The notes under the pieces: model-generated
The model's input: only the letters and a program-made list of their open reading frames with translations
The model's database searches: none
Told to the model about the DNA's origin: nothing
Shown here: piece by piece, positions 21,863 to 29,308 of the stretch
Position numbering within the stretch: the first letter of the stretch is position 1
Layout of the letters: the number at the start of each line of letters is the position of its first letter
Made by a program: the position numbers and the translations under genes
Source: Nostoc punctiforme PCC 73102
GTDB lineage: Bacteria > Cyanobacteriota > Cyanobacteriia > Cyanobacteriales > Nostocaceae
Assembly (NCBI RefSeq): GCF_000020025.1
Contig: NC_010628.1
Location: forward strand, 4,920,001-4,952,000
Length of the DNA stretch: 32,000 bases
Direction: 5' to 3'

Positions 21863-22525
21863 TTACGAATTAATACTTACCAAAAGGCGTTGATTAAAAT
21901 AGCCCTTGGGTAGAAAGCAGCGATCGAGTAAAAAAGGATTATTGGTATCTCCAAATAATAAATTACCCTGCTTCTCTCGATGACAGAATGGTGGCACAAT
22001 TCCCCAATCTTCTGCTAGCCAAATCCAGTATCCTATGTCAATTCTGCCATAGTTTGAACCTGTGAGAATCTCCCCAACGCTGTTGTTGATAGATACTATT
22101 TCTGGCGATGATTTGATTTCAATTAACAGCCAAGCTAACTCTTCTACAGAAAAGCTATAGCCATTATCAGCAGCTATGTTGACGAACTGCTGCGGATCTT
22201 TAGAGATGAGCAATTCTTCTTTGAGAGATGGCGTTTTTTGTGCAAAATCAAAAAGATCCCAAATCTGTCTTCTTGTAACTAGAAACCACGCAAGTTCTTC
22301 TGCCGTCAAATTGCAACCATTTTCTGTTGCTAACTTGAGAAATGGCTCAAGGCTATTGGTTTCTGCTAATTGACTTTTCAATTGGAAAGTTTGCTCTACT
22401 AACAACAAAAAATCAATAACCTTTTGCCATGTAACTTTGTCATAACTTTTATTAAATTTTATTTTCTCTTGCCAATAAATGTATTTATCTTCTTTAAGAA
22501 AGAAATTCCAAATTTGATAATACAT
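21863..22525 (-). CDS. Protein with two tandem Nif11-like domains and an unknown C-terminal domain
   Basis: This is a 220-aa ORF. Two internal repeats resemble the Nif11 N-terminal domain: SQLAETNSLEPFLKLATENGCNLTAEELAWFL and EELLISKDPQQFVNIAADNGYSFSVEELAWLL. Confidence 0.6.
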   Translation of the reverse strand: MYYQIWNFFLKEDKYIYWQEKIKFNKSYDKVTWQKVIDFLLLVEQTFQLKSQLAETNSLEPFLKLATENGCNLTAEELAWFLVTRRQIWDLFDFAQKTPSLKEELLISKDPQQFVNIAADNGYSFSVEELAWLLIEIKSSPEIVSINNSVGEILTGSNYGRIDIGYWIWLAEDWGIVPPFCHREKQGNLLFGDTNNPFLLDRCFLPKGYFNQRLLVSINS

Positions 22526-22903: not shown

Positions 22904-23244
22904 TTAGTTAATAGATAAATCACGGAGGAAGTAAAAGCGATCGCTATTCCAATCACTGCCTTTTATTCGCCCTAAATAGCCTGTTAAAGGTGAGGAAAGC
23001 TCAATCAGAATTTCATGCATTTCTGCTGTTTTTATTGGCTGTGGCGGATGTGAGCCGAAATACGCACCATGTAGAGCTTCAACACCAGCAGATTTTATAC
23101 CTGAGTTTTCTAAATAGTTTTTGACAAGCTGGATAACGTGCGATCGCAACCTTATTGATTGTTCAACTTTATCGATATAAGTATTAATTTTATCTTCAGC
23201 TAAACCAAAAGGAGCTTGTTGTAAACACTCTTTTAGTTCTAATA
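22904..23244 (-). pseudogene. C-terminal fragment (about 112 codons) of the IS-disrupted nuclease gene
   Basis: The minus-strand frame is open from the IS boundary (23244) to the stop at 22904. It is in frame with 24251..25418 once the IS and one copy of the flanking repeat are removed. The ORF track shows only 22904..23149 from an internal TTG. Confidence 0.8.
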
Positions 23245-24244
23245 GAGTTGTCGGGAAATAAAAGATAAGTGAGGCAATGCTGGTCTTGTAATTGGGATTC
23301 TCTTAAGCAGCCATCAAGTAGAAGTTCCATAATCCTGCTGCGGTCAGCATCAAATGGTCATCAAAGTTTTCAATCCGATTACGATAAATGACACTGGCGG
23401 CGTTGTAGCGCTTCACACCAGCAAAGGCATTTTCGCAAACTACACGGGATTGACTCAATTGACGATTCTCCGTTTTTTGAAGGTCACTTAACTTGCCCCC
23501 TTTGGGCTTTTTGTGAGGAAGATGGAGATTGTCATACTGCTTCTGTAATCCCTGAAAGCCCGAGTCTACTTCAATCGGAATTTCATCAGGCACACTACCT
23601 GCAATGTCATCTTCGTCATGAAAACGTTTGTCATGCAGTTTGCCTTCTCGTGCTTTGCTTAAGATCAAGACCCGTTTGGTTTCATCAACTGCCGCCAAGT
23701 GTTTACGCGTATGACGTTTCTTTTTACCGGAGTAATTCTGTTGTTGTTGTTCTCTTTCTTGAGGTCGCGCAATTGGGCGTTCTGTCCCATCAATCATCAC
23801 TCGTTGCACTCCTGGAAAGCGTGACAAAAATGCTTCAATGCTTTCGAGATGGCGTTCCGGCAGCGCCATCTTCTGTCCCAAAGCCGCTTCTAATATTGGC
23901 TGCAATCGATGCATCCACTCATGTGCCTGGGAGCGATGCATATCAAAGAGCAGTCCCGCCACATCAAAGGTCGGATAACATTTGAAATAGAAAAGGATGA
24001 AAAACAATTTGTCTTGGGCTGTAAGTAAGCGGGCTTTGCGTCCTCCACCCAGGCCACGTTGACGAGGCTTGGCCTGTTGAGTATCTAGGTACATCGTGGT
24101 AAACGTGGGCAAAAGGGCATCAAATGCTTTCCGGTTCAACCCAGTTAATGCCCTCAACAGTCGGTCTTGCTTCAGCGCACCTTCAATATTCAGCATCATT
24201 CTTCCCTACCACTGCTGTCTATTCTCTCTTATTTCCCGACAAGT
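23245..24244 (-). mobile_element. Insertion sequence of about 1.0 kb, IS5/Harbinger-like (DDE_Tnp_4-type transposase)
   Basis: The terminal inverted repeats are GAGTTGTCGGGAAATAAAAGA (23245-) and the reverse complement of TCTCTTATTTCCCGACAAGT(C) (-24244/5). The core TTGTCGGGAAATAA is identical in both. The direct repeat (C)TAATA flanks the element at 23239-23244 and 24245-24250. A single transposase ORF lies inside. Confidence 0.88.
23303..24199 (-). CDS. IS5-superfamily DDE transposase (HTH_Tnp_4 + DDE_Tnp_4 type)
   Basis: This is a 298-aa ORF. It has LTAQDKLFFILFYFKCYPTFDVAGLLFDM (HTH), MIDGTERPI, YSGKKKRHTRKH, a second acidic block VDSGFQGL and the C-terminal CENAFAGVKRY (E). Confidence 0.88.
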   Translation of the reverse strand: MMLNIEGALKQDRLLRALTGLNRKAFDALLPTFTTMYLDTQQAKPRQRGLGGGRKARLLTAQDKLFFILFYFKCYPTFDVAGLLFDMHRSQAHEWMHRLQPILEAALGQKMALPERHLESIEAFLSRFPGVQRVMIDGTERPIARPQEREQQQQNYSGKKKRHTRKHLAAVDETKRVLILSKAREGKLHDKRFHDEDDIAGSVPDEIPIEVDSGFQGLQKQYDNLHLPHKKPKGGKLSDLQKTENRQLSQSRVVCENAFAGVKRYNAASVIYRNRIENFDDHLMLTAAGLWNFYLMAA

Positions 24245-25418
24245 CTAATAAGTTGATAGAATTTTTGTAGTGTGCTTGCAGTTCAACTAGTTTTTGTAGT
24301 GTTTCAGGGCTAACAATATTCATTTGATTTTCGGTAGCTGTTCTTAAGGCGTAAAAATTTAGTTCTCCGGCGGCTACAATTAATTTAATAGAATTGTCAT
24401 ACTGAAATTTACCAAGATGGTTCATACCTATTTTTAGTAACTGTGCTGGTGTACCATCAGTAACTTTCTCAGTTTTAGTTGCTTTGCACTCTCCTACTAT
24501 TGGATAAGGTTGTTCAGCGTAAAAATCCATACCTCCTGCGCCACCAGTTGCATCTGGATTCAAACCTGAACCTGTAAAGCCTAATTTTAGTAATCCTCTA
24601 CGAACCAATTTTTCAAATGTATGTCCATCGCTAGAGTTACCAACTTTAGCAATGTTTTGAATCCAAGGTAAGTCTGAATCTAATGGATTTGTTAGTTTAT
24701 CGCTACTCCAACCTAAAAATACTTTGATATCGTCGTCTAATTGTTTCGCTGCTGGTTGGCTAATGCTTAGGGATGCGATCGCACTCTGCAATTCTTCTAA
24801 TTCAGGATGTAGCGGGGGTTGTAGCTTTTCTAACTGGTGTTTGCGTTGGGCGAAGGTGCGATCCTTTAATACTGGCTTGTCTTCAGAAACATTGAGAGGT
24901 TGTGATAATGCAACAAACTGACTATTTGACTTTATCGGTACTTCAATTGATTTAGGCAACTCATATACTCGCAAATATGCCAAAAATATATTTTGCTTTT
25001 GCCTTAGTATTTCTTTTAAAGCTTCTGTTGTCCAAATAGTTAGCTGTGATAAAGCAGCGAAAGATTCTGTATTATTAATAATTTGGCATAGTTCGCACTT
25101 AGCCCAAGTTTTAATTAAAACTGTTTCATAAGCTAATATGGGAAGTTTTAACTGTTCCTCATCTATAAGTAAGTTCATTTGCTGAGGTTGTATTAAAACA
25201 CCCTGTATATTTAGTTGTGCGAATGCACTTTGAGCAATAGGTAAGAAACTTGAGCGATAGTACTGCTCAACTGGTAGTAAATTAATTGATGCATCTGATG
25301 GACAAAGAGCGAATTCTCGCCCCGGAGTAATAAATTTATTAGGCATTGCTGCAATTATTCTCCCTTGCAAAAATGCCTCAATTTCTGGTGCTGCTAGACG
25401 TAAAGCTGTATTAATCAT
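24219..25418 (-). pseudogene. N-terminal 391 codons of a roughly 502-aa protein with an Mrr-like PD-(D/E)xK nuclease core, truncated by the IS (last 8 codons and the stop are IS-derived)
   Basis: The ORF track gives 399 aa. The nuclease core at 24474-24629 reads DGHTFEKLVRRGLLKLGFTGSGLNPDATGGAGGMDFYAEQPYPIVGECKATK (D298...E310-x-K312). The C-terminal ..DLSGNKRE* is encoded by the IS inverted repeat. The N-terminal ~165 aa resemble DUF1802 from memory. Confidence 0.8.
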
Positions 25419-25423
25419 TATTC

Positions 25424-27283
25424 CTAAAATAAAGCACCTGAACTAACACTTCCTCCATCTGCAACCTCTGTTAAAGTGATATTAGTACTTTCAATTTCTT
25501 CATCAATTGCATCTTCAGGAACTTGCCCTGATGGGTCGCTGAGAATTTCACGAACAAGATAATTATCAATTGCTATCTGCTTTTGGTGAATAAAATCAAT
25601 AATTTGTTCTTCGCTTAACTCATCATCTTCACGACCTTTCATCACAAAATGTAATGCTAATAGTGGTTTTATATCTTCAGGTTTTAATAAAACCCATTCA
25701 CCACCTAATTCCTTTGATAAAAGCGTCTTTAAATGTTCTTGTGCTTTAGTAGCACCTTTATTAATTTGTTTAGAGCGAACTAAACAGCCACGAGTTACAT
25801 CAAAGTCTTTATAACGAATTAAGCGTTTCAATGTAGCTTGGACGAATAAGCCACCAGATTCTTGCAGAACAGCTACAGCAATTTTGACATTTTTACCATT
25901 TTCTGTACCAACAATTTTAAAATCAAGATAGCCTCTATCAACAGCTTTTACCTCAACATCGACAACTTTTTCTATTTTTACATTCTCTATAGTTTCACCA
26001 ATGACTGCATTAAATCCTAATCGGAGTGCTTGAGCAAGAGTTGCTTTATCCTCCATGTAATCTAGTATGGTAGTTTCTAAAGCAGATATTTGTTGATTAT
26101 AAGCAGGCTCTACAGGGTGTCTATCTATGACTATTCCAGGAAATTTAAAATTGTCAGCACACCATTTTAAAATTTTTCTAACTATTGGTCTTTCTTTACC
26201 TAATGCTCTTAACTTCTGTTCATCAAATGGGTAAAGTGCATGAGGAGGTGTTAAAGTATGTTCTTGATAAAACTCTTCAAGCCATCGAGAAACTAAATCA
26301 ATAACATCATCAGAATTGAGATACTTTAGTTCAATAACTTGCTCTCCAATTCTATCTACAACTGAATCAGCATTTCCTAATCTTTTAACTTCGTTAATCC
26401 AGTGATCAGGAAAGATAGAAGTTAGTAAAACGCCACGCTTAATTTTATCGCATAAGTCTTTAGCAAAAATGGCAGTTACTTGTCGTCCAGTATATCCTAT
26501 TTCATTACAGTGGTCAGTTTCCATTTCATCAAAACAAACTACTATTGGTTTGTAATCACCAATTAAGTTGATAATTTGCCGGGCTGTAGTGAAGGATTCA
26601 GCCTCTTTATCATCTGCACTCACATTGGCTAAACCCATTGCATCCGCTTTGACTTGTGGTAGACTGTTGCCGGCAAGCCATCTAATAGCAAAAATTTCAT
26701 AAGCTGGATCAGGAGATAGTGTCCATAAAATCGCTGTGATAATATCAGGATTTTCTAGATCAGGCTTGATACCAAGTACCTTATCTCGTAAAACTTCAAC
26801 CACCTTGGGATTTTTGACTAATGCTCCAGGAAACTGATTTATTAGCTGTTGGGCTGTATAGTTTTTGTTGAAAGCTTCATTAATTAAAGCTGTTGCTAAG
26901 TACTGCCATTGACTAACACCTTGACTCCCTATTTGTTTAAGGCTAGTGGCTAGAGTAGTTAAGAATTCTGCTTTAATACGGTTTAGGTTATTACACTGAC
27001 TCATATAGACAAATAAAGCGCTACCATCAAATTGTAAGCGATGGCGAATTCTGCTGATCAGATGGCTTTTACCTAAACCTCTTTCTGCTGTAATTGTAAT
27101 ACCAATTACTTTCCTTTGTCCGCTGTTAACTTTTTCAATTGCGTTATAAACAGCATCAGAAACATGAGAATTTAAAGATGGTACATCAGGAAAACCTTGT
27201 CCCCAAACATTCTGATCTCTAACTACTAAGCGTGCCTCAAATGGGTTGTGTTTGCTGATAATATTAATTAAATCGTTAGACAT
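25424..27283 (-). CDS. Uncharacterised P-loop NTPase (619 aa), middle gene of the candidate defence operon
   Basis: Walker A AERGLGKS lies at 27065-27088 (residues 66-73). The candidate Walker B IVVCFDE lies at 26525-26545 (residues 247-253). The stop is 5 nt before the ATG of the nuclease gene. The C-terminal ~350 aa have no recognised family. Confidence 0.8.
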   Translation of the reverse strand: MSNDLINIISKHNPFEARLVVRDQNVWGQGFPDVPSLNSHVSDAVYNAIEKVNSGQRKVIGITITAERGLGKSHLISRIRHRLQFDGSALFVYMSQCNNLNRIKAEFLTTLATSLKQIGSQGVSQWQYLATALINEAFNKNYTAQQLINQFPGALVKNPKVVEVLRDKVLGIKPDLENPDIITAILWTLSPDPAYEIFAIRWLAGNSLPQVKADAMGLANVSADDKEAESFTTARQIINLIGDYKPIVVCFDEMETDHCNEIGYTGRQVTAIFAKDLCDKIKRGVLLTSIFPDHWINEVKRLGNADSVVDRIGEQVIELKYLNSDDVIDLVSRWLEEFYQEHTLTPPHALYPFDEQKLRALGKERPIVRKILKWCADNFKFPGIVIDRHPVEPAYNQQISALETTILDYMEDKATLAQALRLGFNAVIGETIENVKIEKVVDVEVKAVDRGYLDFKIVGTENGKNVKIAVAVLQESGGLFVQATLKRLIRYKDFDVTRGCLVRSKQINKGATKAQEHLKTLLSKELGGEWVLLKPEDIKPLLALHFVMKGREDDELSEEQIIDFIHQKQIAIDNYLVREILSDPSGQVPEDAIDEEIESTNITLTEVADGGSVSSGALF

Positions 27284-27347
27284 AGATTTGAAGTAGTTGT
27301 GTATGAGGGTTAACAGAGAATTAGCAAAAATTACAAAAATTGGTAAA

Positions 27348-28001
27348 TTAGTTTAAAAGTTTGGCATAGCAACGTAGCCCACTGACTTCAGTAGTTACCG
27401 AATCTTCCAGTTTGCTTGGGTCATTGTCTGGTAAACTTCCACCTTGGAGTTGTAAAATATCTTTCTCCTGCATTTCCAGCAACCACTCACTGAAATCTTC
27501 GCGGCTCACCCGATCGCCTATTTCTCTCCTGATGCGATAAATTGGCACCAGATCATCTAAGTTATAGTTTTGGTTTAACTTGTCGTAGACTTCTAAAGCC
27601 ACTGATTTAAACTCTCCGTAAGATCCGATCGCACTCTTCCCATTAACTGGTACATCTGCACCAATTACCGCAACATCAATCTGACTAATCCACTTCACCA
27701 GCGCATTCGCCGCCCAAGTTCCCACAATCGTCCCTTCAAACTTAAACTTGCCACTTCTCAAACCCTCACCCAATACCTCTAAACCCTTGGGAGATGTCAG
27801 AGAATATCCTTTTTTGGAGATTGCGATCGCACCCTGATTCTGCAATTCTTCAAATGACCCCTGATAATCTGCTACCTTCTGGCTTTTGGATACAATTCGC
27901 TTAGTGAGTTGACCCTTTTTAACTTCCTGCTGCGTTCCTCCCAAATCCCACAAAGCCAAAAGGAGACGAGTGTTAGTTTGGGCTGTATTTTTGGATGTCA
28001 T
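27348..28001 (-). CDS. Small protein with winged-helix-like modules, first gene of the candidate defence operon
   Basis: The ORF track gives 27348..28022 from a TTG start. ATG at 28001 (MTSKNTAQTNTRLLLALWDLGG..) is more plausible and gives 217 aa. Helix-rich N-terminal (QLTKRIVSKSQ..ELQNQGAIAISKKG) and C-terminal (LVPIYRIRREIG..FSEWLLEMQEKDILQLQGG) segments look wHTH-like, which is an inference. Confidence 0.65.
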   Translation of the reverse strand: MTSKNTAQTNTRLLLALWDLGGTQQEVKKGQLTKRIVSKSQKVADYQGSFEELQNQGAIAISKKGYSLTSPKGLEVLGEGLRSGKFKFEGTIVGTWAANALVKWISQIDVAVIGADVPVNGKSAIGSYGEFKSVALEVYDKLNQNYNLDDLVPIYRIRREIGDRVSREDFSEWLLEMQEKDILQLQGGSLPDNDPSKLEDSVTTEVSGLRCYAKLLN

Positions 28002-28340
28002 ATTTAATCTATTTTTTGACAAAGATCATCATAGTAGCTGTATCTTTGTAATTTATTTATCCAGAAAAAATAACCGAGAAATTGCTGAATATTTCGGCGT
28101 TTCAGCTAAATTGATTAATCAAAAATCAACAATATATTTCTTTGGGATGAATGCAGTTTCTCTCAAAGGCAGGATGAAAGACTCAAGAAAACCGATCATC
28201 ATAAAAGTGAAACGCTGTAGCTGGTGCAGTTACAAATTAAGTGAAATATGTTTTTTCAATCCCAGGTGAAATAACAGGATTTCCAACTTGGTTTTTGCAA
28301 CAGCAAGGCTTTTAGCAAATACAGGTGATGAAGAAATCCA

Positions 28341-28823
28341 ATGAACACAATATATAAAGAACGTAAAATAGTTTCGCGTCTATTTGCGGTGCTACTTTCG
28401 GCATTGCTAATGGTACCCGTGCTGAGTAGCTGCGGAGGCGGTTCCCAAAAAGCTTCAGTACCACCACCTGTTGATGATACCGTTGGTAGAACAGTCAGCG
28501 ATCGCCAAACCGAAGCTAAGAAGGGATTGGGTACAGGACAAAAAGTGGCACTTTTGGCTGGAGCTGCTGCACTTTACTACATGTACAACCAGCATAAGAA
28601 TGCTCCACAAGAAGGAGCGCAAGGTAAGTACTATCTTTCCAAGAACGGGCGCGTATACTACCGCGATGCTGAACATCGCGCTCACTGGGTAACGCCACCA
28701 CCAGAAGGAATCCGAGTACCCGAATCTGAAGCACAAAAGTATCGGGAATTCCAGGGCTATAACCGGAGTGCCACAGGTCGCGATCTAACTGGTATAACTT
28801 CATCCGCAGCACCAGCACTCTAG
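28341..28823 (+). CDS. Hypothetical lipoprotein
   Basis: This is a 160-aa ORF. A signal peptide with lipobox LSSCGG is present (SALLMVPVLSSCGGG). No known family was recognised. Confidence 0.65.
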   Translation: MNTIYKERKIVSRLFAVLLSALLMVPVLSSCGGGSQKASVPPPVDDTVGRTVSDRQTEAKKGLGTGQKVALLAGAAALYYMYNQHKNAPQEGAQGKYYLSKNGRVYYRDAEHRAHWVTPPPEGIRVPESEAQKYREFQGYNRSATGRDLTGITSSAAPAL

Positions 28824-28916: not shown

Positions 28917-29240
28917 ATGGTAAATGAATTTTTCCGAAAGGCGAAAGATTTACTCTTGGGATCGAACAGCGATCAAGACGCTGAATTCCGCGATCGCGAT
29001 GTACGTCCAGCCAGCGAAGACCCCTACGGCGATCCCGCAGACCCAGCATCTTACGGTAACGTTATTCCAGCCAGTCAAGACCCCTACGGTGACCCCGCAG
29101 ATATCTCGTCCTACGGCAACGTTCGCCCAGCTAGTGAAGACCCTTACGGCGACCCCGCAGATACAGGGGAGTTTGGTGATGTCCGCCCAGCTAGCGAAGA
29201 CCCCTACGGCGACCCCGCAGATGAGGATTACCGTCGTTAA
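28917..29240 (+). CDS. Acidic repeat protein with 4 x 20-aa units (V-R-P-A-S-E-D-P-Y-G-D-P-A-D...)
   Basis: This is a 107-aa ORF with GGAG 8-11 nt upstream of the ATG. The four 60-nt units start at 29001, 29061, 29121 and 29181. They differ mainly at synonymous third positions, which supports this frame over the overlapping ORFs 28924 (+) and 28950 (-). Confidence 0.65.
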   Translation: MVNEFFRKAKDLLLGSNSDQDAEFRDRDVRPASEDPYGDPADPASYGNVIPASQDPYGDPADISSYGNVRPASEDPYGDPADTGEFGDVRPASEDPYGDPADEDYRR

Positions 29241-29308
29241 CGCCAACGGCACAAATATTCTGGTGAGTTTGACGAACCTCTCCCTGCCTTGAACTAAAGT
29301 TCAAGTCT

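Follow-up and report, generated by a model that had tools for sequence, protein, structure and literature searches.

The stretch of DNA analysed here, hereafter the window, comprises 32,000 nucleotides (nt) of the cyanobacterium Nostoc punctiforme PCC 73102 (contig NC_010628.1, positions 4,920,001 to 4,952,000) and carries, according to the open reading frame (ORF) calls, three co-directional minus-strand genes at positions 22904-28022. Gene 1 (27348-28022, minus strand) is a 224-amino-acid (aa) ORF with a TTG start, for which gene callers place the start at an ATG 7 codons downstream, giving a product of 217 aa; gene 2 (25424-27283, minus strand) is a 619-aa ORF encoding a protein 100% identical to a N. 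punctiforme database protein; and gene 3 (24219-25418, minus strand) is a 399-aa truncated ORF with a C-terminal remnant in frame at 22904-23149. From the ORF coordinates, 64 nt separate genes 1 and 2, and 5 nt separate genes 2 and 3. A first-pass annotation of the window had read these genes as an operon for a winged-helix-like protein, a P-loop NTPase, and an Mrr-like nuclease, and had put them forward as an undescribed defence or DNA-targeting system. Its gene positions, strand, and spacings are correct when re-read from the ORFs, as are its motif coordinates by arithmetic on the translations of genes 2 and 3. Its domain list was right about the nuclease and the P-loop, but overlooked two further domains of gene 3 (DUF1802/ASCH-like at the N-terminus, winged helix at the C-terminus) and the likeness of gene 2 to Orc/Cdc6 proteins. 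Promoter and terminator counts in the window are no higher than in shuffled sequence, and no regulatory claim is therefore made.

The window's copy of gene 3 is broken by an IS5-family insertion sequence (IS; 23245-24245, minus strand, 1001 bp), which is bounded by 29-nt imperfect terminal inverted repeats, encodes a 298-aa transposase (23303-24199, minus strand; Pfam DDE_Tnp_4, HTH_Tnp_4, and DDE_Tnp_1), and is flanked by a 5-bp target duplication, TATTA, at 24246-24250 and 23240-23244. The insertion splits the winged helix at the C-terminus of the gene 3 protein, and the last 8 residues of the predicted 399-aa truncated product are derived from the IS. This truncated product appears in 72 assembly blocks, the contigs of which stop exactly at the IS, from which it follows that the insertion is real and that the IS is repeated (multicopy) in the N. 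punctiforme genome; the disruption is seen in many independent N. punctiforme sequencing runs. The system of N. punctiforme is probably non-functional as a nuclease. Removal of the IS and one TATTA in silico restores a 502-aa gene 3 frame that aligns end to end (100% of length) with 457-513-aa orthologues of the "DUF1802 family". The 5' portion of the gene, as delimited by the ORF and the IS junction (24246-25418, minus strand), encodes residues 1-391 of the repaired protein, and the 3' portion (22904-23239, minus strand), in frame once the IS is removed, encodes residues 392-502 plus the stop codon.

The repaired gene 3 protein appears to consist of three domains. Residues 1-195 (24834-25418, minus strand) form a DUF1802 domain (Pfam PF08819; 101.8 bits and E 4.8e-29, passing the gathering threshold of 25 bits), which is detected in 29 of 29 gene 3 orthologues with a best E of 3e-36, and which probably adopts an ASCH/PUA-like fold. 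The fold search employed an AlphaFold2 model of a 91%-identical intact orthologue, P0122 (predicted local distance difference test, pLDDT, 82.5), and the top Foldseek matches of this domain are the TRIP4 ASCH domain bound to double-stranded DNA (8yfj, E 7e-3, probability 0.98), ZmASCH, TTHA0113, and af2351. Since the E-values of the ASCH matches are weak, the assignment is held as probable and not as proven. Among orthologues, W105, C108, C111, R150, and Y152 of the DUF1802 domain are invariant. The domain also contains an insert modelled with low confidence (residues ~72-97, window ~25128-25205, LIQPQQMNLL...EEQLKLPIL, pLDDT <50), which varies by allele class, being present in some classes and absent or shortened in others, and the N-terminal matches of gene 3 begin at residues 71-102 in loci L065, L066, L069, L074, and L079-L081.

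The second domain, residues 250-390 (24249-24671, minus strand), is the Mrr-like PD-(D/E)xK core with the motif GGAGGxD298 ... E310-C-K312. Positions 24474-24629, corresponding to residues 264-315, contain FEKLVRRGLLKLGF together with D298, E310, and K312. These three residues are invariant in 29 and in 68 orthologues, in which the GGAGGxD298...E310-C-K312 motif is kept, and sub-threshold Mrr_cat matches are found in 23 of 29 orthologues, with a best E of 1.8e-4. The Foldseek matches of the core include MspJI, AspBHI, HindIII, and AF1548, and gene 3 also matches viral models of the "Restriction endonuclease / type IV Mrr" type (E 7e-4, probability 1.00). With the catalytic triad present and a predicted restriction-endonuclease fold, gene 3 is assigned to the Mrr-like PD-(D/E)xK nucleases, and its catalytic residues are intact across the family. 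The third domain, at the C-terminus, is winged-helix-like; it ends in an invariant ELSSPLTGYLGR...DRFYFLRDL motif in the orthologue alignment, and its Foldseek matches are winged-helix domains of Cdt1 and ORC (3a4c and 7ctf; probability 0.97-0.99, E 0.2-0.7).

Gene 2 carries a Walker A motif, AERGLGKS, at 27065-27088 (minus strand, residues 66-73, with K72) and a Walker B motif, IVVCFDE, at 26525-26545 (minus strand, residues 247-253, with D252/E253). Neither G71 nor K72 varies among 30 diverse homologues, and K72 is constant in 49; F251 and D252 are invariant in 49 homologues, and E253 among the closer 70. The conservation of K72 and D252, like that of D298, E310, and K312 in gene 3, exceeds what chance would give. 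A comparison of the gene 2 sequence profile with the PDB returned only Cdc6 (E 0.085) and nothing significant. The AlphaFold2 model of gene 2 (pLDDT 85.9, predicted template modelling score 0.82) finds its best Foldseek matches in the archaeal Orc/Cdc6 structures 1w5t and 2qby and in Drosophila Cdc6 (7jgr_G), with E between 2e-4 and 7e-4 and a probability of 1.00, followed by the RADAR protein RdrA (E 9e-4) and, low in the list, by Avs3 and Apaf-1. By its modelled fold, gene 2 is an Orc/Cdc6-like AAA+ ATPase with intact Walker motifs.

Other assignments of gene 2 have been tried and rejected. The Pfam family KAP_NTPase scores 23.8 bits against a cut-off of 20, yet the match covers only profile positions 2-87 of 293, and with no transmembrane segment (maximum 19-residue hydropathy of 1.07) gene 2 is not a true KAP NTPase. 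It is not a McrB-type GTPase either; an AAA_5 match is lacking, the motif scan finds no N[KT]xD or MNxxDR motif, in agreement with the first-pass annotation, which had seen no McrB GTPase motif, and the fold is closest to Orc/Cdc6. An Avs-like STAND NTPase is likewise not indicated, the Pfam scan of gene 2 yielding no NACHT, NB-ARC, or nSTAND match and no repeat domain. In a distant homologue (P0312), NB-ARC is marginally above its cut-off (23.8 versus 23.5 bits), and NACHT and nSTAND are sub-threshold. AAA_16 lies below its cut-off in gene 2 and above it in homologues, and a weak Pfam match to BrxC_BrxD is obtained for gene 2 (E 0.094) and for the homologue P0310 (E 7e-4).

After the AAA+ core and lid of gene 2, an alpha/beta domain with a modelled beta-beta-beta-alpha-beta-alpha-beta order follows (residues ~430-532, 25688-25996, minus strand). 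It lacks a conserved D...(D/E)xK motif and contains a conserved TRGCLVRS strand. A subgroup of Orc/Cdc6 ATPases with an inactive restriction endonuclease inserted before a C-terminal winged helix-turn-helix (wHTH) has been described (PMC10853773, NAR 2024), and the gene 2 alpha/beta domain, which likewise precedes C-terminal helices, has the topology of that subgroup; from this topology and that description, residues ~430-532 may be an inactive restriction-endonuclease-like insert. The C-terminal three-helix region (residues ~535-590, with helices at 535-581 in the AlphaFold2 secondary structure; 25514-25681, minus strand) is possibly a winged helix of the Orc/Cdc6 type.

In the gene 1 protein, conservation is moderate over the N-terminal part (~aa 18-115), lapses in a variable linker, and is high in a C-terminal domain (~aa 132-224), the final ~95 residues of the protein being very strongly conserved. 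Scans of Pfam, NCBIfam, PADLOC, and PHROGs place it in no family with significance (the sole PADLOC match being PDC-M64B, E 0.02), sequence and profile searches of the PDB are empty, and a homology comparison finds no relationship to gene 2, gene 3, or ScpB. Weak winged-helix matches occur among 30 orthologues, namely SelB-wing_2 in 6 of 30 and DUF6293_C in 3 of 30 (E 0.004-0.07), and also HTH_45 and HTH_Crp_2, so that gene 1 is regarded as a putative multi-winged-helix DNA-binding protein. It precedes gene 2 in essentially all loci, the most distant clade included (hhalign probability 100%), and is an obligatory small partner in the operon. The combination that the first-pass annotation had read here is borne out: a P-loop ATPase and an Mrr-like nuclease of the PD-(D/E)xK type are joined by a small protein, probably a winged-helix one.

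The three-gene unit is genuine, as had been supposed from the window. With each species represented by one genome, a scan for gene 2 relatives yielded at least 515 loci, of which the best 80 were examined together with the locus of Calothrix NIES-2098, giving 81. The best 80 loci are all cyanobacterial and include Nostocales, Microcoleus, Tychonema, Moorena, Leptolyngbya, Thermosynechococcaceae, Gloeocapsa, and others, with a preponderance of filamentous orders such as Nostocales and Oscillatoriales. Genes 1, 2, and 3 lie in this order on one strand wherever the contig permits, and the conserved co-occurrence for which the first-pass annotation had suggested surveying other genomes is evident in 69 of the 81 loci, where all three ORFs are intact. 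In the other 12, an ORF is mostly cut at the sequence end or left uncalled by the ORF rule, and a few loci are rearranged or truncated (L032, L053, L080, and L081). A single gene 3 ORF is present in 75 loci, with a length of 344-512 aa (median 488). In 31 of the 69 intact loci, genes 2 and 3 share 1 or 4 nt, and in 50 they either overlap or lie at most 15 nt apart. Metagenomes contributed a further 68 loci, and the triad is complete in about 40 of these, at ATPase identities down to 28-30%; in genomes and metagenomes together, the gene order is repeated in about 120 loci beyond the window. The whole gene 2-type family amounts to at least about 580 loci, seemingly all cyanobacterial, and every named relative in four protein searches is a cyanobacterium; it is a small family, with 492 representatives at 50% clustering and E<=1e-3.

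In Nostocales, the operon is always found at one chromosomal site, flanked by pgi at one end and, at the opposite end, by mdh, ndhO, and mutM together with the gene for a 160-aa protein; these flanks, already named for the window, are confirmed by synteny with Calothrix NIES-2098 and many Nostoc loci. In orders outside Nostocales, the operon is located elsewhere. The HIP1 octamers from which a long residence in cyanobacteria had been argued number one in gene 1, none in gene 2, and three in gene 3, with 26 in the whole 32-kb window, a frequency in the operon of about the background density; the long residence itself stands, on the basis of the cyanobacterial relatives and the synteny in Nostocales.

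Variant arrangements are also found. The most divergent, Pseudanabaena-like clade keeps genes 1, 2, and 3 (hhalign probability 100% for gene 1 and gene 3), and an extra module of ~212 aa, which belongs to no Pfam family, occurs in this clade between genes 2 and 3 (L083, 7926-8564) or fused to gene 2, as the C-terminal 200-220 aa of ATPases of 828-857 aa (L082 and L085). In four fusion proteins (P0247, P0252, P0257, and P0301), the ATPase is joined to the nuclease and winged-helix half of gene 3, with DUF1802 missing; a metagenome scan seeded with these four proteins returned ordinary split triads and no fusion contigs. One ATPase homologue (P0268) ends in a SeqA_C-like domain (residues 729-796; E 2.8e-5), its 24.6 bits falling just short of the cut-off of 25.5. 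As hemimethylated GATC is the ligand of SeqA_C, this C-terminal end hints that DNA-methylation readers can be attached to gene 2-type ATPases. Rare solo ATPases occur beside Mur-ligase-like genes (L121, 6001-7836, and L123, 5983-7836) and directly after scpB (L127, 5968-7749), the one in L121 being a paralogue directly upstream of a complete triad. In L130 (2805-7848), genes 1 and 2 are followed by an unrelated 573-aa protein of no Pfam family, which replaces gene 3.

The fixed site in Nostocales allows the alleles of the operon to be compared against a nearly constant neighbour, and 28 loci whose PGI is 92-98% identical to that of the window were compared with the window copy. At these loci, the identity to the window copy is 77-96% for the N-terminal part of gene 1, 50-94% for the N-terminal part of the ATPase, 47-87% for the DUF1802 domain, 37-96% for the nuclease core, and 44-93% for the C-terminal winged helix of gene 3. 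The ATPase values fall into discrete classes near 93, 83, 63, 57, and 51%, and those of the nuclease core into three types near 95, 64, and 39%. Nucleotide profiles show sharp breakpoints at the junction of genes 1 and 2 and at the end of DUF1802, and the nucleotide identity of the nuclease core is either 94-98% or 52-59%, whatever the ATPase class. The Spearman correlation with ATPase identity is 0.83 for the C-terminal domain of gene 1 and 0.78 for DUF1802, as against -0.12 for the nuclease core and -0.07 for PGI; the co-varying parts are contiguous on the DNA, and linkage alone could give this correlation. At least three cassettes assort independently: the C-terminal domain of gene 1 with the ATPase and DUF1802, the nuclease core, and the winged helix. 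Conflict systems typically show such shuffling of modules under diversifying or balancing selection, whereas housekeeping genes would not be expected to. The mosaic of alleles thereby constitutes a natural experiment, in which a co-evolving ATPase, ASCH-like domain, and gene 1 C-terminus can be set against a freely swapped nuclease core and winged helix.

All three components of the operon match the description of neighbourhoods already on record, and its architecture is therefore not undescribed, as the first-pass annotation had claimed too strongly. In one sentence, Krishnan et al. (PMC10853773, NAR 2024) describe neighbourhoods of an Orc/Cdc6 ATPase with an ASCH-REase (REase, restriction endonuclease) and a DndG-like multi-wHTH protein, and predict for them a role against invaders (selfish elements); the same work notes that Orc/Cdc6-family ATPases serve Tn7 and Mu transposases. 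By domain type, these neighbourhoods correspond to the operon in all three components, the third being in the operon a small protein that may be made up of winged-helix domains. They are called "mobile", whereas the operon is chromosomal, syntenic in Nostocales, and not on plasmids or phages; gene 1, unlike their wHTH partner, matches no DndG, SspB, or FokI-type domain by sequence when compared with Pfam and the PDB; and the description mentions neither the additional winged helix at the C-terminus of gene 3 nor the mosaic of cassettes. The operon is thus a cyanobacterial representative of a computationally predicted kind, which is on record yet unnamed.

That the operon lies outside the named systems, as had been judged from the window, is upheld by the PADLOC, NCBIfam, and PHROGs searches, which give it no placement. 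PADLOC-DB v2, with its models for Gabija, Septu, PARIS, Hachiman, Menshen, BREX, DISARM, Lamassu, and others, has no match for genes 2 and 3, neither NCBIfam nor PHROGs returned a usable match for any of the three proteins, and single-sequence searches of the PDB with the operon proteins returned nothing. Menshen, compared by description, differs in its components, the ParB-DUF262 protein NsnA and the inPIN protein NsnC, and the triad is not described among the multicellular NTPase conflict systems of eLife 2020. A literature search for "DUF1802" found one paper, which is unrelated.

Mechanistic parallels are found among restriction systems. McrBC shares with the operon the logic of an AAA+ NTPase, a separate PD-(D/E)xK nuclease, and a modification-reading domain, putative in the operon, and neither has a cognate methyltransferase; however, the McrBC ATPase belongs to the McrB/MoxR clade, whereas gene 2 is Orc/Cdc6-like and lacks NxxD, MNxxDR, and AAA_5, and the McrBC reader resides on the NTPase, whereas in the operon the reader-like domain belongs to the nuclease subunit; the operon also includes an obligatory small protein as its third subunit. 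Fusions of a PUA-superfamily sensor and a nuclease are described as modification-dependent restriction enzymes (PMC6765204, PMC7641849), PD-(D/E)XK-wH enzymes (wH, winged helix) and wH/Mrr-NTPase fusions as m6A-dependent type IV systems (PMC11037411), and ASCH as a predicted reader of modified DNA bases (PMC4738411, PMC11037411). Gene 3, which combines a PUA-superfamily-like domain, a PD-(D/E)xK core, and a winged helix, is comparable with the single-chain modification-dependent enzymes (MspJI/AspBHI, PUA-nuclease fusions, DpnI-like PD-(D/E)XK-wH enzymes, and Mrr). These act without an ATPase, whereas gene 3 has an ATPase partner, and the sensor of gene 3, in contrast to theirs, is an ASCH-like DUF1802 with a putative specificity for DNA modification. 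BREX BrxC/PglY and RADAR RdrA are likewise Orc/Cdc6/STAND-related defence ATPases, to which the weak BrxC_BrxD match and the structural RdrA match of gene 2 correspond, but PglX, PglZ, BrxA/B, and the RdrB deaminase are absent from all loci examined, and the PADLOC models are without a match.

On this evidence, it is slightly better than an even bet that the operon encodes a cyanobacteria-specific, three-subunit, NTP-dependent, DNA-targeting restriction-type system directed against invaders. The conserved gene order, the overlap of genes 2 and 3, the ATPase-nuclease fusions, the invariant catalytic residues, the folds, the mosaicism, and the literature all support this anti-invader reading. 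The gene 3 protein, with its ASCH-like DUF1802, Mrr-like nuclease, and C-terminal winged helix, would be the effector, and the gene 2 ATPase, in the manner of Orc/Cdc6 proteins, would assemble on DNA. Together with the gene 1 protein, the ASCH-like and winged-helix domains of the effector would recognise some trait of foreign DNA, in all likelihood the presence or lack of a base modification; ATP binding or hydrolysis by gene 2 would license or position the nuclease, presumably through coupling via the ASCH-like domain, and the nuclease would then cut. The three target-facing parts may be swapped as cassettes between strains at the fixed site, retuning the specificity. The step of modification reading is less secure than the general anti-invader reading: DUF1802 varies together with the ATPase, and the fusions do without it, which accords with an adaptor role. 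A sharper version, offered tentatively and with appreciably less confidence, is that of a mechanistically new immune locus, vertically anchored and found throughout cyanobacteria, in which an Orc/Cdc6-like ATPase loads on DNA and licenses an ASCH-guided nuclease against the hypermodified DNA of cyanophages, while specificity is renewed as cassettes (ATPase plus ASCH, nuclease core, and winged helix) are shuffled between strains at a fixed site.

Several observations weigh against the anti-invader reading. The likeness of gene 1 to winged-helix families is weak; the ASCH matches of DUF1802 reach Foldseek probabilities of 0.94-0.99 with E between 7e-3 and 0.1, none attaining 1e-3; and the Mrr_cat match of gene 3 (residues 263-377; 18 bits, E 0.0032) stays below the gathering threshold of 21 bits. 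The ASCH-like domain, for which a reading role is proposed, co-varies with the ATPase (rho 0.78) and is missing from the fusions. The operon is syntenic and vertically kept in Nostocales, and no gene 2 relatives were found by tblastn in 72,556 plasmids and 50,697 phage records or in a viral contig collection, a combination that is unusual for defence systems. Outside Nostocales, a Pfam and PADLOC census of 110 neighbours found mainly housekeeping genes and no defence-island enrichment, so that the enrichment beside known defence genes that the first-pass annotation had thought worth looking for was not seen. With neighbours of this kind and no mobile copies, the classic defence-island argument is inapplicable, and the defence-island hypothesis is rejected. 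The defence role is inferred, the literature searched containing nothing experimental for any member. Of the candidate as first proposed, a plausible DNA-targeting system of the defence type remains, while its undescribed status does not; a defence-island or mobile context is not seen, and the window copy is inactivated. Defence-type matches among the neighbours outside Nostocales are scattered and comprise Uma2, one type IIG restriction-modification system, and TnpB/Cas12f-like matches; Uma2 is the commonest Pfam family among these neighbours (4 of 110).

The co-variation of DUF1802 with the ATPase and its absence in the fusions mean that the domain may be a docking adaptor and not a DNA reader, and they lead to the best of the alternatives, abortive infection, which is rather unlikely. 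Here, an Orc/Cdc6/STAND-like ATPase would sense a phage protein or damaged DNA, oligomerise, and switch on an indiscriminate gene 3 nuclease, with DUF1802 as the adaptor. The correlations of DUF1802 and the gene 1 C-terminus with the ATPase (0.78 and 0.83, against -0.12 for the nuclease) fit such a switch, as do the fusion proteins without DUF1802, the structural neighbour RADAR RdrA with the weaker Apaf-1 and Avs3, and the weak NACHT, NB-ARC, and nSTAND matches of the distant homologue, among which only NB-ARC reaches its cut-off. However, the co-variation may reflect DNA contiguity only, the best folds for gene 2 are Orc/Cdc6 and not STAND, no repeat sensor of the TPR, WD40, or LRR type is found in the Pfam scan, and the ASCH-like domain, winged helix, and gene 1 suit direct discrimination of DNA better.

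The vertical inheritance could also be taken to mean that the operon is a housekeeping module for DNA transactions, in which an Orc/Cdc6-like loader and a nuclease act in replication, repair, or the handling of polyploid chromosomes. The fixed site among core genes in Nostocales and the housekeeping neighbours elsewhere agree with this, and so do the strictly chromosomal location, the restriction to one phylum, and the single solo ATPase directly after scpB. We nevertheless consider it improbable, as the family is small (492 representatives) with its best loci mostly in filamentous orders, the operon is disrupted by an IS in viable N. punctiforme in many independent sequencing runs, and ATPase and nuclease identities of 50-94% and 37-96% at a PGI identity of 92-98%, with cassette shuffling, are not a housekeeping pattern. 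The discrete allele classes at one locus across close Nostoc species, with independently assorting modules, could likewise mark a polymorphic locus by which multicellular cyanobacteria tell self from non-self (kin or incompatibility), with haplotypes that would discriminate the DNA or cells of other strains and not phages in particular. Phage-driven diversifying selection explains the same pattern equally well, though, and with no toxin-delivery, secretion, or surface component and no transmembrane segment in any of the three proteins, such a locus is very improbable. An origin as a domesticated Tn7- or Mu-like remnant, with an AAA+ regulator, a TnsA-like restriction-endonuclease and winged-helix nuclease, and a target selector, would accord with the service of Orc/Cdc6-family ATPases to such transposases and with the nuclease-then-winged-helix order of gene 3, which resembles TnsA, but is scarcely credible and was rejected, since Pfam gives no match to TnsA, TnsB, or TnsC, the 50 best fold matches of gene 3 do not include TnsA, and the fixed site has no element ends and no transposase besides the unrelated IS; transposition-related partners are largely lacking across the loci.

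If the anti-invader reading is true, the operon would represent an experimentally untouched NTP-dependent restriction-type family in organisms whose phage defence is poorly studied, and would provide a first function for DUF1802 and a concrete DNA-sensing role for ASCH-type domains. If the vertically anchored version is true, the locus would amount to a chromosomal "immigration control region" of filamentous cyanobacteria. The domain logic would not surprise a specialist, but the modular polymorphism at a fixed locus is unusually clear. As the laboratory strain of N. punctiforme carries a dead copy, the locus may also bear on the permissiveness of this strain to foreign DNA.

The genes around the operon merit a brief description. 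Just downstream of gene 3 lies a gene for a 220-aa protein with two Nif11 domains (21863-22525, minus strand). A Nif11 homologue follows the triad in 18 Nostoc loci and in two of Trichormus variabilis (L086 and L087), in whose fetched flanks no homologue of pgi or of the 160-aa protein is found; the triad of T. variabilis ATCC 29413 (L086) is intact, with products of 221, 657, and 487 aa. Being present in 20 of 88 loci and so absent from most, the Nif11 gene is probably a lineage-specific neighbour rather than a fourth component. Small gene pairs of ~105 aa and ~120 aa (in 29 and 28 loci) and Uma2-family (DUF820) nucleases recur downstream of the triad across loci L002-L081. Upstream of gene 1 and divergent from it, the gene for the 160-aa protein (28341-28823, plus strand) encodes a lipoprotein-like N-terminus (LLMVPVLSSCGGG); it occupies this position in 37 loci and has no Pfam family in orthologous loci. 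Beyond it, a 60-nt tandem repeat of 3.6 copies with 78% matches (29007-29222) gives rise to RPASEDPYGDPAD-type repeats in a 107-aa ORF (28917-29240), which is kept in 13 loci and is overlapped by long ORFs at 28924-29292 (plus strand, other frame) and 28950-29252 (opposite strand).

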